From a virus (taxonomy: Duplodnaviria; Caudoviricetes): a stretch of DNA of 64,000 bases. Below are positions 7,367-61,782 of this stretch, in pieces. Each line of letters opens with the position of its first letter. Position 1 is the first letter of the stretch. The notes under the pieces were generated by a model. The model was given only the letters and a program-made list of their open reading frames with translations, searched no databases and was not told the origin of the DNA. Where the stretch lies: positions 32,001 to 96,000 of the IMG/VR virus record IMGVR_UViG_2509276065_000002; one strand, 5' to 3'. A program made the translations under genes and the position numbers.

Positions 7367-7801
7367 ATGAAGCGCGCACCCATGATGCTGCTCATCGAGG
7401 ACGATCCAAATGATGTCTTCATGGCTACGCTCGCCTTCGAAGCCACCGGCCTCGATCAGGAAGTGGCCATCACCAATGACGGAAGAGACGCGCTCGATTT
7501 CCTTTACCGCGCTGGCCGTCACGCCGAGCGACCTGTGGGCTTCCCCCAGCTGATCCTGACGGACCTGAACATGCCTCGAATGAATGGCCTGGAGCTGTTG
7601 AAAGCCATCAAGCACGACGAAACCCTGGCCCACATCCCTGTCGTGATTTTCACCACCTCAGATGCAGAGCGGGACCGTGAAGCTTGTGCCGCGCTCGGCG
7701 CCGAAGATTACCTGGTCAAGCCGGGGGACTTTCAGGATTTCGTCAGCCTGGTCGGGAACCTGACCAGCCGCTGGCTTCAGTCAGACAGCCTGGCCATGTA
7801 A
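7367..7801 (+). CDS. Single-domain response regulator (Rcp/CheY-like receiver)
   Basis: LLIEDD, LTDLNMP, FTTS, YLVKP motifs. Confidence 0.92.
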   Translation: MKRAPMMLLIEDDPNDVFMATLAFEATGLDQEVAITNDGRDALDFLYRAGRHAERPVGFPQLILTDLNMPRMNGLELLKAIKHDETLAHIPVVIFTTSDAERDREACAALGAEDYLVKPGDFQDFVSLVGNLTSRWLQSDSLAM

Positions 7802-7834
7802 GTACGGGCGACGCAAGCGTCAACGCTCCACGCT

Positions 7835-9250
7835 TCACTTGGGCCAGGTGAAGTGAAACGTGCTGCCGCTCCCCAACGTCGATTCCACCCACAAGCGACC
7901 GCCTGCCCGCTCCACGATTTTCTTGCAGATGGCCAGTCCCAGACCACTGCCCTCGAAGCGCAGGGTGGTGTGCAACCGCTCCATCATCCCAAAGACCCGC
8001 TCGGCGTACTGCTGATCAAAGCCAATGCCGTTATCCTCGACCACGAACTGCCAGGCCTCAGTGTCATGGGTGACCCGCACCTCGATCACCGGCGCGACGT
8101 CGTGACGCCGGAACTTCAGCGCGTTCCCGATCAGATGCCGCCACAACTGCAAAAATTCAACACTGTCCGCATGCACCATGGGTAACGGCGCGATGGTCAC
8201 CGTGGCGTTGGTGGCCGCGATCAACGGGGCATACTCACCGATGACCTGCGTCACGATCAAGTTGGCGTCCGCATCCCCCCGATGCGGTTCGGCCGCCCCG
8301 AGGCGCGCGAACTCCAGCAGGTCATGGACCAGCTCGCGTTCACGTTTCAGGGCGTCCTGAATCACCTCGAGGTACTGCCGTCCCTGATCATCGAGCGCTT
8401 CGGCGTAACGGTGGTGGAACAGCGAAGCATACATCCCGATGGTCCTGAGCGGTTCCTGCAGGTCATGCGCGGCTGCCCGCGCGAAGCCTTCGAGGTCGCG
8501 GTTGTTGCTGAGACGTTCCTCGCGTGACCTCGCCAGGGACGCCGCGATGTGGTTCAAGCTGCGGGCCAGGGCGACACCTTCGACCATCCGCGGTTCAGGC
8601 ACGGTCTCCCCCAGGTGACCCAAGGCCAGGCGAGCGGCCGCGTCGGTCAGGTCACTGAACATGCTTTCGAGGTCCAGCCTGGCGATCTCTTCCACGGTAT
8701 GCTGCACGGCCAGGCTGAGGGACGCCACGGGTTCGGCCACCTGCTCCATCTCGTTGTCCTGGAGGGCCGTGTGAACCTTATCCCCAATGCGCTCGAGCTC
8801 CGCGACCTGCTGGGCTGAGCTGGTGTTGTCCTGTGCCTCGGCGATCAATTGTTCGAGGTTGGCGAGCTGTTCGTGGGCGGTATCGCTGATGCCTTGCAGG
8901 ACTTGCGCGCTGATGTGCTCAACGGGCGTGGTGGTCACTTTGCGCAGCGCTGCCCCCACTACGCCCTCCAGGTGCGCCACAGCGGCCAGTTGTCTGCGCG
9001 CGGTGTCCATCAAAGTCTGCACTTCTGCCGTTGATCTCGTGGGATCCTGCCGCCGTAATGACTCGGCCACCTGCCGCAGGGCGACGGTGATGTCCGCCTG
9101 ACCTCGTCCGATGGTGATGATGCGCTCCAGTGCCGAACTCTGTTCCGCTCCGGCGGCGCCGATGTGACGCCGCGCCTCACTTGCCCCTTCCCGATCGAAG
9201 TTCGCGCTGTCATTGTGCGAGAGCGAAGAGGGTAGAGTGTCGTCGGTCAT
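7835..9250 (-). CDS. Soluble sensor histidine kinase (helical N-terminus, HAMP, HisKA, HATPase)
   Basis: AAHDLQEPLR H-box, LIGNALKF, EDNGIGF, GSGLGLA; HAMP-like LTDAAARLALGHL...LARSLNHIAASL; leaderless TATACT 6 nt before ATG 9250. Confidence 0.92.
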   Translation of the reverse strand: MTDDTLPSSLSHNDSANFDREGASEARRHIGAAGAEQSSALERIITIGRGQADITVALRQVAESLRRQDPTRSTAEVQTLMDTARRQLAAVAHLEGVVGAALRKVTTTPVEHISAQVLQGISDTAHEQLANLEQLIAEAQDNTSSAQQVAELERIGDKVHTALQDNEMEQVAEPVASLSLAVQHTVEEIARLDLESMFSDLTDAAARLALGHLGETVPEPRMVEGVALARSLNHIAASLARSREERLSNNRDLEGFARAAAHDLQEPLRTIGMYASLFHHRYAEALDDQGRQYLEVIQDALKRERELVHDLLEFARLGAAEPHRGDADANLIVTQVIGEYAPLIAATNATVTIAPLPMVHADSVEFLQLWRHLIGNALKFRRHDVAPVIEVRVTHDTEAWQFVVEDNGIGFDQQYAERVFGMMERLHTTLRFEGSGLGLAICKKIVERAGGRLWVESTLGSGSTFHFTWPK

Positions 9251-9330
9251 CTGGGAAGTATAAAACCGAGCAGAGTTAAAACCGTGCGGGACGGCCATCC
9301 ATCGTCGTGGAGCCGCTGAGCGAACGGGAT

Positions 9331-9360
9331 CAGCACTTCCGGGTTTGTCCATAAACCAGG
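9331..9360. repeat. 30-bp intergenic motif, copy 1
   Basis: CAGCACTTCCGGGTTTGTCCATAAACCAGG; 26/30 identical to 11038-11067. Confidence 0.7.
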
Positions 9361-60750: not shown

Positions 60751-60822
60751 GTGCCCTGCACAGCTGGCCTGTCGTGGGGACTTCGCAAGTCGCACGAGAC
60801 TGGCGGCATGACTCCTTTTCGT

Positions 60823-61077
60823 TTAGCTGGGCAGTGAGGGTCGGGAGGCCTGGGCTTGCCAGTACCGCTGGCGCAATTCGCTTTTGAAGTCCTGCAGGTC
60901 GTACAGGATGCTGTGCAGCGCAACGCCGGTATGCGCGAGCGGAACGATGGGAGCGTCCCGGATGACCTGCCTCACTCGATCAAGGTGGCTTTGCAGGCGC
61001 TCGGCTTCACCCCATTTCACGGCCAGGGGCAGCAGTTCGTCATACAGGCTGTAAATTTCCGCCAGAACCTCATCCAT
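60823..61077 (-). CDS. Small helical hypothetical protein
   Basis: 84-aa ORF in a gap. Confidence 0.5.
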   Translation of the reverse strand: MDEVLAEIYSLYDELLPLAVKWGEAERLQSHLDRVRQVIRDAPIVPLAHTGVALHSILYDLQDFKSELRQRYWQAQASRPSLPS

Positions 61078-61359
61078 CTCTCGATCAAGGTAAACGGCAG
61101 ATGGAACGCGTGATAGGCCGAGCGGCCCACACCCCCTGAAGTCTTTTTACAGCTAATTCCGATGTTTTCAGTAGGGATGGGCAGCGACCGGCAGAGCGAC
61201 GAAACACCATGATTTTGGCTGGTATGCAGGCTCTGTTCTGCAGCCTTCTGATACGCTCTGCGTTCAGCTCAAATCCAGTTTCCACATGCTCTTCATATAC
61301 TCAGGGAGGATTGCAAAGTTACCCTTCATGTGGAGCCGCCCCGCGAACAGGAGTTCCTG

Positions 61360-61782
61360 ATGCCCCCCATCCTGCTGGTCGAAGACAACCCCCTCGACGT
61401 GGAACTCGCCATGATCGCCTTCGAGGAATGCGGCCTGCAACGCCAGGTCATTCACAAGAGCGACGGACACGAAGCGCTGGAGTACCTCACCCACCAGCCA
61501 GGGCCCTTACCCCGTCTGGTGCTGCTGGACCTCAACATGCCCCGCGTCAACGGCTTTGAGGTCCTGCAGGCCATGAAGCAGCACGCCACCTACCAACATG
61601 TCCCGGTGGTCGTGTTCACCACCTCGGAAACCGACACAGACCGCGAGCGTTGTTACGAGTTGGGCGCAGATGATTTCCTGCATAAGCCCAACAACTTAGG
61701 TGACCTGCGCGAAATCTTTGAAGCGCTGCAGGAGAAGTGGTTGAGCCCGCCTGCTGGCGCTTCAACCCACCTCGCGTCCTGA
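61360..61782 (+). CDS. Single-domain response regulator
   Basis: LLVEDNP, LLDLNMP, FTTS, FLHKP; AGGAG RBS. Confidence 0.92.
   Translation: MPPILLVEDNPLDVELAMIAFEECGLQRQVIHKSDGHEALEYLTHQPGPLPRLVLLDLNMPRVNGFEVLQAMKQHATYQHVPVVVFTTSETDTDRERCYELGADDFLHKPNNLGDLREIFEALQEKWLSPPAGASTHLAS

Follow-up and report, generated by a model that had tools for sequence, protein, structure and literature searches.

Phages are known carriers of toxins, defence genes and single regulators; as 'moron' cargo they typically bring toxins, surface-modifying enzymes, or genes for defence or exclusion. No complete canonical two-component set on a phage came up in exact-phrase searches of the open literature. The closest example we found is the Clostridioides difficile phage phiCDHM1, which carries agr genes including a homologue of the histidine kinase AgrC; these are thought to be host-derived and to act through host components (PMC3901668). 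In phiCDHM1 a single kinase-like gene is present without a response regulator, in the context of peptide quorum sensing (PMC3901668). In Alphaproteobacteria, phages carry binding sites for the host response regulator CtrA, an example of a phage programme that can couple to two-component output (PMC9437464). Two further groups of proteins invite comparison: the HEF_HK/Response_reg_2 defence cassettes (PADLOC candidates), in which kinase and receiver genes occupy prophage accessory slots, and the bacteriophytochromes and Cph1 with their Rcp regulators (6xvu, 8avv, 1i3c, 1k68).

The Deinococcus prophage described here resembles phiCDHM1 as a temperate phage with host-derived signalling genes. However, it carries two intact HisKA kinases, one pseudokinase, four Rcp-like single-domain receivers and one OmpR-type DNA-binding regulator; the kinases are soluble and of the PAS/GAF type, and the genes are placed in two inserts, islands 1 and 2. 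In contrast to the CtrA-using phages it brings the signalling proteins themselves. With phage morons the islands share the character of opposite-strand, backbone-independent inserts of host origin at two classical cargo slots, but they differ from typical morons in being multi-gene canonical two-component sets, which are rarely reported. That such sets are unusual in phages, as the initial annotation held, is plausible: matches to the kinase or the OmpR protein occur in about 0.3% of 50,697 phage records, the majority of the matching records being mislabelled bacterial contigs. We consider it probable that both islands are host-type two-component cargo modules in accessory slots, giving lysogenic conversion.

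The prophage is 78.2 kb long and integrated in a Deinococcus-family (Deinococcaceae) chromosome, and the window (the entire stretch of DNA analysed, 64,000 nucleotides) lies in its range, with the left att border at window 3892-3947. The att repeat is exact over 56 of 56 bp. Its left copy doubles as the junction with a neighbouring 40-kb prophage, and its right copy is part of an intact tRNA-Arg(CCT) gene 18.1 kb past the window end, adjoined by the integrase gene (Phage_integrase, 9.7e-23). A third att-type copy of 45 bp is found at genome positions 1448017-1448061; the att repeat search found no degenerate copy inside the element. The genes for packaging, head, tail and lysis share the minus strand; they include those for TerL (phrog_38, 7e-77), portal, protease (phrog_207), capsid, tape measure and amidase. 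Past the window end the early region continues with an RNase T-like exonuclease, C5 and N6 methylases, DnaB, ERF, a control region, the integrase and tRNA-Arg. The integrase beside tRNA-Arg, the exact att repeats and the structural and lysis genes bear out the earlier view of a temperate phage, and both islands indeed lie inside the att-bounded element. Judged by its sequence, the element is a temperate prophage of siphovirus-like type that integrates at tRNA-Arg in a Deinococcaceae bacterium. In an empty-site comparison the tRNA-Arg flank was present in three same-genus genomes, but the neighbourhood was rearranged and the left host flank was not adjacent. The features of the window are collected in the table.

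Table. Features of the prophage within the window (positions in window coordinates)
Feature	Position	Strand	Description
attL	3892..3947	.	Orphan 3' 45 nt of tRNA-Arg(CCT) + 11 nt
Left accessory-arm backbone	3948..7216	.	Small genes without assigned function
REC1	7367..7801	+	Single-domain Rcp-like receiver; ORF opens at 7247; Pfam REC 7388-7750
HK1	7835..9382	-	Soluble HisKA/HATPase_c kinase, H306 intact
REC2	9981..10472	-	Single-domain receiver with N-terminal extension; REC domain 10011-10349
104-aa protein	10511..10825	-	No family assigned; upstream of REC2
OmpR-type response regulator	12493..13167	+	REC + Trans_reg_C winged helix (Pfam)
SRAP gene	14389..15255	+	SOS-response-associated peptidase; arm backbone restarts here
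Phage late region	19962..55135	-	From 55135 downward: ParB-methyltransferase, TerS, TerL, portal with LAGLIDADG intein, protease, major capsid protein, HNH; then 2900-aa tape measure, tail/receptor-binding proteins, papain-like peptidase, amidase endolysin, beta-helix/discoidin protein
Island 2 as insert	55136..62038	+	6.9 kb between ParB-methyltransferase gene and last early gene
GAF-PAS pseudokinase, 546 aa	55834..57474	+	GAF-PAS-HATPase_c (Pfam)
REC3	57548..57991	+	Single-domain Rcp-like receiver, directly upstream of large kinase
929-aa soluble kinase	57961..60750	+	PAS-GAF(-GAF)-PAS-HisKA-HATPase_c; Pfam finds PAS-GAF-PAS-HisKA-HATPase_c; H, N, G boxes intact
REC4	61330..61782	+	Single-domain Rcp-like receiver
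Phage early region, start	62039..64000	-	Runs on beyond window end

Pfam and whole-genome family scans returned the gene content of both islands as first described. The H-boxes of the two intact kinases read AAHDLQEPLR (HK1) and SVSHDLRTPVR (929-aa kinase), and both proteins carry the N, G1 and G2 boxes (NALK...DNGxGF...GxGLGLA). All five receivers, including that of the OmpR-type protein, retain the acidic pair, the phospho-acceptor Asp, the Thr/Ser and the Lys: (E/D)D...DL(N/H/G)(M/L)P...(T/S)...K(P). The 546-aa protein had rightly been called a pseudokinase; its H-box is ARDLSEPMR (His to Arg), the N-box Asn is replaced by Val and the G1 Asp by His (HNG). Since the same His, Asn and G1 changes occur in a paralogue on the host megaplasmid C2 and in an orthologue in another Deinococcus genome (G039), this protein is a conserved pseudokinase. 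The kinase-type proteins have no TM helices, as stated before, and their hydropathy peaks fall only within GAF/PAS domains. The public gene call for the large kinase is 884 aa, implying a start at 58096.

Among solved structures, all four single-domain receivers come closest to phytochrome-associated regulators (top PDB matches 6xvu, 8avv, Rcp1, RcpA/B and RphyB; E 1e-21 to 1e-28), in agreement with their assignment to the Rcp type. The term 'bacteriophytochrome-type' is appropriate for these receivers and for the kinase core with its HDLxxPLR-type H-box, but not for the photosensory part. Unlike bacteriophytochromes and Cph1, the prophage kinases have no PAS_2-GAF-PHY core detectable by Pfam, which finds only the generic sensor domains PAS_3, PAS_4, GAF_2 and GAF_3. 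Their sensors consist of generic PAS/GAF domains or have an unassigned fold, so the prophage kinases are not phytochromes.

The unassigned fold is that of HK1, whose N-terminal ~290 aa form an all-helical sensor region that matches no known family; PDB sequence searches with this region and with two small island-1 proteins gave no match. The conserved start of HK1 is probably M45 (base 9250). An AlphaFold model built from four orthologues had a pLDDT of 51 and did not resolve the N-terminal sensor. HK1 had been described as a HAMP kinase. Pfam gives no HAMP match at E<=0.01, and the TM helix that a HAMP domain usually follows is absent; present are a conserved HAMP-like motif just before the DHp, 'AARLAxGHLxETVPEP...LARSLNHIAASL', and a low-confidence helix-loop-helix at 239-293, where the pLDDT of the model is <50.

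By the predicted gene order, island 1 occupies the arm that separates the lysis genes from attL, and island 2 the early/late junction. The arm backbone to the left of island 1 matches a relic at C2:182634-184125 of the host megaplasmid with 81-92% nucleotide identity, and this homology begins exactly at the att border. On the other side of the island the SRAP gene is 81% identical at the nucleotide level to C2:179712-180806. The host megaplasmid thus holds a second copy of the arm backbone (C2:179.7-184.1 kb, 81-92% nucleotide identity), in which 1.8 kb without two-component genes replaces island 1 (7201-14388). The convergent arrangement of REC1 and HK1 is kept in other Deinococcus species (G039, G065 and G075), with 55-75% amino acid identity; other Deinococcus chromosomes hold orthologues of the pair at 70-75%. 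The 104-aa protein has a homologue (74% aa) on contig C14 of G039, 10 kb from the G039 pseudokinase orthologue.

The left arm raises the question whether island 1, or both islands, might be host or foreign DNA trapped in a composite tRNA hot-spot locus, unpackaged and with no phage-related function. Two elements do stand in tandem at the tRNA-Arg site, 78 kb is large for such a capsid gene set, no recognisable phage structural gene occurs in the 16-kb left arm, and a copy of the arm backbone also stands by itself as a relic in an IS-rich region of the megaplasmid. Yet there are only three att copies, none of them separating the left arm from the lysis genes, and the start of the arm-relic homology at the att border is what is expected for a true element end. 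The genes flanking island 2 are adjacent in a related prophage, as set out below. Furthermore, G031, another Deinococcus prophage, bounded by att sites at tRNA-Lys, likewise carries a receiver gene in the arm beyond its lysis genes, where it stands alone directly after the endolysin gene. We therefore regard trapped DNA as an improbable explanation. In another genome, G113, kinase and receiver genes lie 10-17 kb past the tail genes; no att repeat was found there. A REC-HK-OmpR operon in G022, 41-46 kb downstream of a related TerL, was considered as a parallel to island 1 and rejected; owing to its strong host-like codon bias and the lack of att evidence it is probably host flank.

Island 2 sits, as had been noted, at the early/late junction, between the last early gene and the ParB-methyltransferase and terminase genes. 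In G044, the nearest related prophage by capsid (57-61%), the homologues of the ParB-methyltransferase gene and of window 62039-63112 are 279 bp apart, as opposed to 6.9 kb here. Thus the inserts are missing from the compared backbones (the G044 junction and the C2 copy of the arm) and stand at a module junction and in an att-proximal arm, as morons do. No convincing direct or inverted transposon-like repeats were found to flank either island.

The closest relative of the pseudokinase is a host megaplasmid gene (C2:434846-436471, 84% aa). The phage and megaplasmid proteins are each just 63-68% identical to their orthologues in seven other species, one of them of the same genus (identities by direct tblastn), and the pseudokinase belongs to a conserved Deinococcus family. 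The two islands are of separate origin, one pointing to a paralogue on the host megaplasmid, the other to orthologues from different species of Deinococcus. None of the genes is a near-identical copy of a host gene; among host paralogues the closest stands at 84%, and the remaining ones are at <=60%. Six comparisons of two-component genes gave dN/dS values of 0.15-0.21 and two of the arm backbone 0.10-0.15, which signifies purifying selection, although in such pairwise values the constraint on the phage copy itself is not separable.

The phage has no close relative; in a search of 5.8 billion protein clusters the large kinase reached 43% at best over its full length and the capsid protein 57-58%, and over all comparisons the best capsid match was 57-61%. 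In IMG/VR no relatives were found with the pseudokinase, HK1 or the capsid protein as query. Direct presence/absence comparison in sister phages is therefore impossible, and with matches at these levels the absence of the islands from relatives rests on distant mosaic prophages and one relic. Within these backbones conservation of the islands was not observed: neither was seen at its slot, and at the early/late junction none of the eight related prophage regions has a kinase or receiver gene.

The initial annotation had seen in the islands one network owned by the phage and had offered two alternatives, lysogenic conversion or phage sensing of the cell state feeding into lysis-lysogeny. The latter would mean a phage phosphorelay which reads an intracellular cue (redox, a small ligand, desiccation or radiation recovery) and sets the phage's own programme, the kinases acting through the receivers and the OmpR-type protein on phage promoters or regulators and so tuning induction or the early-to-late switch. 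The set is complete, with kinases, receivers and one DNA-binding output, and its genes are intact and constrained. The position of island 2, exactly at the boundary of the early genes and directly upstream of the packaging and late genes, would also suit a regulatory role, and phages do exploit response-regulator pathways, e.g. through host CtrA sites (PMC9437464). On the other hand, the eight junctions compared and the second arm-backbone copy are devoid of the islands, the two islands are of separate origin, and island 2 has no output domain and runs on the strand opposite to the phage operons that flank it. Core regulatory circuits are normally kept along with the phage backbone. We consider such a phosphorelay unlikely. 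The specific version, a private His-Asp phosphorelay in which PAS/GAF kinases read the state of the extremophile host and Rcp-like receivers with the OmpR-type regulator time induction or the early-to-late switch, we consider quite unlikely; if true, it would be a phage decision circuit made from two-component parts and not from a repressor/SOS or peptide system. Because neither island stands at its slot in the compared backbones and their origins differ, a single network or a role in lysis-lysogeny is not supported, and lysogenic conversion fits better.

The slots themselves are also compatible with another function, since early/late junctions and att-proximal arms are typical accessory and defence hot spots of prophages. 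The islands could then be anti-phage defence or superinfection-exclusion modules signalling by His-Asp phosphotransfer, like the kinase/receiver cassettes of prophage hot spots, and the arm does hold a DUF2726 nuclease-like gene besides the SRAP gene. However, PADLOC-DB gave no match apart from weak generic receiver-domain matches to the OmpR-type protein. The domains are canonical HisKA, HATPase_c and Response_reg with PAS/GAF sensors and not HEF_HK/Response_reg_2, the island genes have no linked effector such as a nuclease or methylase, and their nearest relatives are ordinary Deinococcus chromosomal genes. A defence function thus seems highly improbable.

Under the preferred reading, that of lysogenic-conversion cargo, host-type cytoplasmic two-component genes would have been captured into two accessory slots. 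In the lysogen they may be transcribed independently of the phage operons, as their opposite strand and position suggest; promoter and terminator consensus scans around the islands gave results at chance level. The phage-borne proteins would then join the soluble PAS/GAF kinases and Rcp-like receivers that the host already has in great number; its genome gives about 65 receiver and 68 kinase-ATPase matches. The most likely phosphorylation target of HK1 is REC1, whose convergent placement next to it is conserved; possible further targets are REC2 and the OmpR-type regulator, the sole DNA-binding output among the two-component proteins, by which transcription would be altered. For the 929-aa kinase, REC3 and/or REC4 are the most likely partners. 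The GAF-PAS protein, lacking both the His and the Asn, could act as a non-catalytic modulator, as presumably do its conserved chromosomal relatives. The net outcome would be a lysogenic conversion that supplies the host with new inputs for intracellular signals.

If the cargo is expressed, lysogeny would alter how the Deinococcus cell senses its interior. The phage would then be a vehicle that spreads and reshuffles this group's unusually rich repertoire of soluble PAS/GAF kinases and Rcp receivers, and phage transfer would offer two-component paralogues a concrete way to multiply. The findings also flag the conserved Deinococcus pseudokinase family for study.

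Both signalling islands lie within a single prophage. The window corresponds to C1:1484027-1548026 of the host genome G000 (4.51 Mb, three replicons; GC 64% in the chromosome C1 and 62% in the megaplasmid C2), whose nearest database homologues all carry Deinococcus species names, in agreement with the family-level genome set. An exact att repeat at window 3892-3947 consists of the 3' 45 nt of tRNA-Arg(CCT) plus 11 more bases; a third copy of the 45-nt core is found at genome 1448017-1448061. The element extends from window 3948 to a point 18.1 kb beyond the window end (78.2 kb in total), in tandem with a 40-kb neighbour at the same tRNA gene. 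A local-alignment scan of the 78.2 kb found no degenerate att copy (top score 17/56). Thus the att copies bound the element, no internal relic is present, and both islands belong to one att-bounded prophage. The neighbour (window 1-3947 and genome 1448017-1487973) has its own related integrase at window 2527-3885, with 83% nucleotide identity over 113 bp to the 3' end of the integrase of the studied element.

Features of the prophage (window coordinates; L001 is a stretch starting past the window end)
Feature	Position	Strand	Remarks
REC1, single-domain receiver	7367-7801	+	island 1
HK1, kinase (HisKA, HATPase_c)	7835-9382	-	island 1
REC2, single-domain receiver	9981-10472	-	island 1
OmpR-type regulator	12493-13167	+	island 1
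ParB-methyltransferase, small terminase	within 19962-55135	-	
Large terminase	within 19962-55135	-	phrog_38, 7e-77
Portal	48399-50987, within 19962-55135	-	
Head protease	within 19962-55135	-	phrog_207
Major capsid protein, HNH endonuclease	within 19962-55135	-	
Tape-measure protein	30872-39574	-	2900 aa
Tail and receptor-binding proteins	within 19962-55135	-	discoidin/Ig domains
Papain-like peptidase, N-acetylmuramoyl-L-alanine amidase, beta-helix protein	within 19962-55135	-	
GAF-PAS-HATPase_c protein	55834-57474	+	island 2, 546 aa
REC3, single-domain receiver	57548-57991	+	island 2
PAS-GAF-PAS-HisKA-HATPase_c kinase	57961-60750	+	island 2, 929 aa
REC4, single-domain receiver	61330-61782	+	island 2
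Early genes	from 62039, on past window end	-	RNase T-like exonuclease, C5 and N6 DNA methylases, DnaB helicase, ERF recombinase
Tyrosine integrase	L001:16904-18118		adjoins tRNA-Arg(CCT)
tRNA-Arg(CCT)	L001:18138-18214		

The ORFs at 19962-55135 lie uniformly on the minus strand and are the phage late genes. The portal is interrupted by an in-frame insert of ~340 aa (residues ~367-708), whose first residue is Cys and which includes a LAGLIDADG domain; the flanking halves are uninterrupted in four related prophages, and the insert is most likely an intein. The tape measure, which has 2650 aa in the related prophage of genome G022, would, should the usual rule of length apply, mean an exceptionally long tail. 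In another related prophage, that of genome G113, a predicted tRNA-Thr(CGT) (L029; G113:C1:~3656433-3656506) separates the portal gene from the protease gene. The left arm, i.e. the accessory region between the att border and the lysis genes, contains a SOS-response-associated peptidase (SRAP) gene at window 14575-15240 and a gene for a DUF2726 nuclease-like protein at window 17591-18106, both typical accessory genes of mobile elements.

Pfam and whole-genome family scans returned the island gene content proposed in the initial annotation. In a kinase-core alignment the H, N, G1 and G2 boxes of HK1 and the 929-aa kinase are all intact, and all five receivers retain the acidic pair, the acceptor Asp, Thr/Ser and Lys. 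As proposed, the kinase-type proteins lack any credible membrane helix: hydropathy exceeds 1.6 in just two peaks, which lie within GAF and PAS domains. The best solved relatives of the four single-domain receivers are phytochrome-associated regulators (6xvu, 8avv, Rcp1, RcpA/B, RphyB), which bears out their assignment to the Rcp type. Pfam found no PHY or PAS_2 domain in the kinases, thus these are not phytochromes. HK1 had been described as a HAMP kinase. The kinase assignment holds; HAMP itself has no Pfam match, and what is present is a HAMP-like motif ahead of the DHp helix, common to four HK1 orthologues, with a helix-loop-helix predicted there by a model of low confidence in that region. 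Alignment of the orthologues suggests Met45 as the true HK1 start. In the public gene call the large kinase has 884 aa, a start that would abolish its apparent overlap with REC3. Two copies of a 30-nt direct repeat (87% identical; window 9331-9360 and 11038-11067) lie over the 5' end of the HK1 reading frame and over the point where a small minus-strand ORF starts; they may represent a leader or operator element common to both.

The 546-aa protein is a pseudokinase, as initially claimed: the phospho-acceptor His is replaced by Arg, the N-box Asn by Val and the G1 Asp by His. Identical substitutions in a host paralogue and in the orthologue of another species indicate a conserved pseudokinase and rule out a decaying kinase gene. 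The family is conserved in Deinococcus (the phage gene, C2:434846-436471, L044 and L056-L061), and the copies that were aligned keep the His->Arg change in the H-box and the Asn->Val change in the N-box. The host copy at C2:434846-436471, which adjoins a large kinase and two receivers, shares 84% protein and 83% DNA identity with the phage copy; seven other species, including a congeneric one, have orthologues with only 63-68% identity to either copy. The tree pairs phage and C2 copies with moderate support (81/24). Being closer to each other than to the orthologues, with a dS of 0.63, they point to a capture within the host lineage that was not recent. The rest of island 2 is not a copy of the C2 cluster: identity to the C2 counterpart is only 49% for REC3, and the large kinase reaches 46% (over 684 aa) with its best host paralogue. 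No REC1-HK1 orthologue exists elsewhere in the host genome (best match 46% over the kinase core). Convergent REC1-HK1 pairs in the same arrangement, 55-75% identical, occur in three other genomes (G039, G065, G075), with no structural-gene homologues of the studied phage around them. The possibility that the islands are near-identical host copies under no selection did not hold up: the pseudokinase pair is the closest, and pairwise comparisons give dN/dS values of 0.15-0.21 in the two-component genes and 0.10-0.15 in two genes of the arm backbone.

The phage is a mosaic and lacks close relatives. Prophages in four Deinococcus genomes compared (two more were found) have large terminases with 66-68% identity to its own, and otherwise share with it the small terminase, scattered weak early-gene matches and little else; its head module is 37-57% identical to a different prophage set. 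A search of 5.8 billion protein clusters gave 57-58% for the closest capsid and 43% for the closest full-length counterpart of the large kinase. In G044, the nearest capsid relative, homologues of the ParB-methyltransferase gene and of window 62039-63112 are only 279 bp apart; here island 2 separates them by 6.9 kb. None of eight related prophage regions has a kinase or receiver gene at this early/late junction. The left-arm backbone recurs on C2 (179.7-184.1 kb) at 81-92% nucleotide identity (window 3945-4221, 5776-6525, 6901-7200 and 14389-15255), the homology starting precisely at the att border. Island 1 (7.2 kb) corresponds there to 1.8 kb in which family scans found no receiver or kinase. 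This copy, a relic, lies in a stretch of C2 rich in IS elements (C2:173000-191000; L054, L055), which holds three transposase kinds, a TIR/SEFIR-domain gene, a relaxase fragment and, in the arm relic, a SRAP gene. No transposon-like repeats flank either island. Within the limits of a mosaic with distant relatives, the evidence for insertion of the islands is consistent.

The simplest reading of these comparisons is that both islands, encoded on the other strand from the phage operons, are host-type cargo that a temperate phage gained separately in its two classical accessory slots. Less probably, the two-component genes, especially those of island 2, would serve the phage's own programme; the position of island 2 speaks for this, and the support does not go beyond position. 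For the islands as defence cassettes we found no support.

When 50,697 phage records were searched at the protein level, the large kinase and the OmpR-type regulator each matched ~157 of them, none covering more than 40% of the kinase. Unannotated fragments dominate the lists, together with large phage-named contigs that hold chromosomal genes (kdpE, for instance). Many of these records look like bacterial contigs, among them 'Acinetobacter phage MD-2021a' contigs of 232-305 kb containing kdpE and rpfC, a Salmonella WGS contig and short fragments named 'Listeria phage LM'; counts of such genes in phage databases are inflated. Searching the literature for exact phrases on histidine kinases, response regulators or two-component systems encoded by phages or prophages yielded nothing relevant; the closest published example found, phiCDHM1, has an AgrC homologue and no regulator.

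A second Deinococcus prophage (G031:C1:247921-309618, 61.6 kb; L008-L011), bounded by a 74-bp repeat of a tRNA-Lys 3' end (71/74 identical), has a lone receiver gene (L011:11283-11708) directly after a GH108 endolysin. Receiver cargo may thus be recurrent among phages of this group. As far as its sequence tells, the two-component cargo of the phage studied here is real, unusually rich and mechanistically ordinary.
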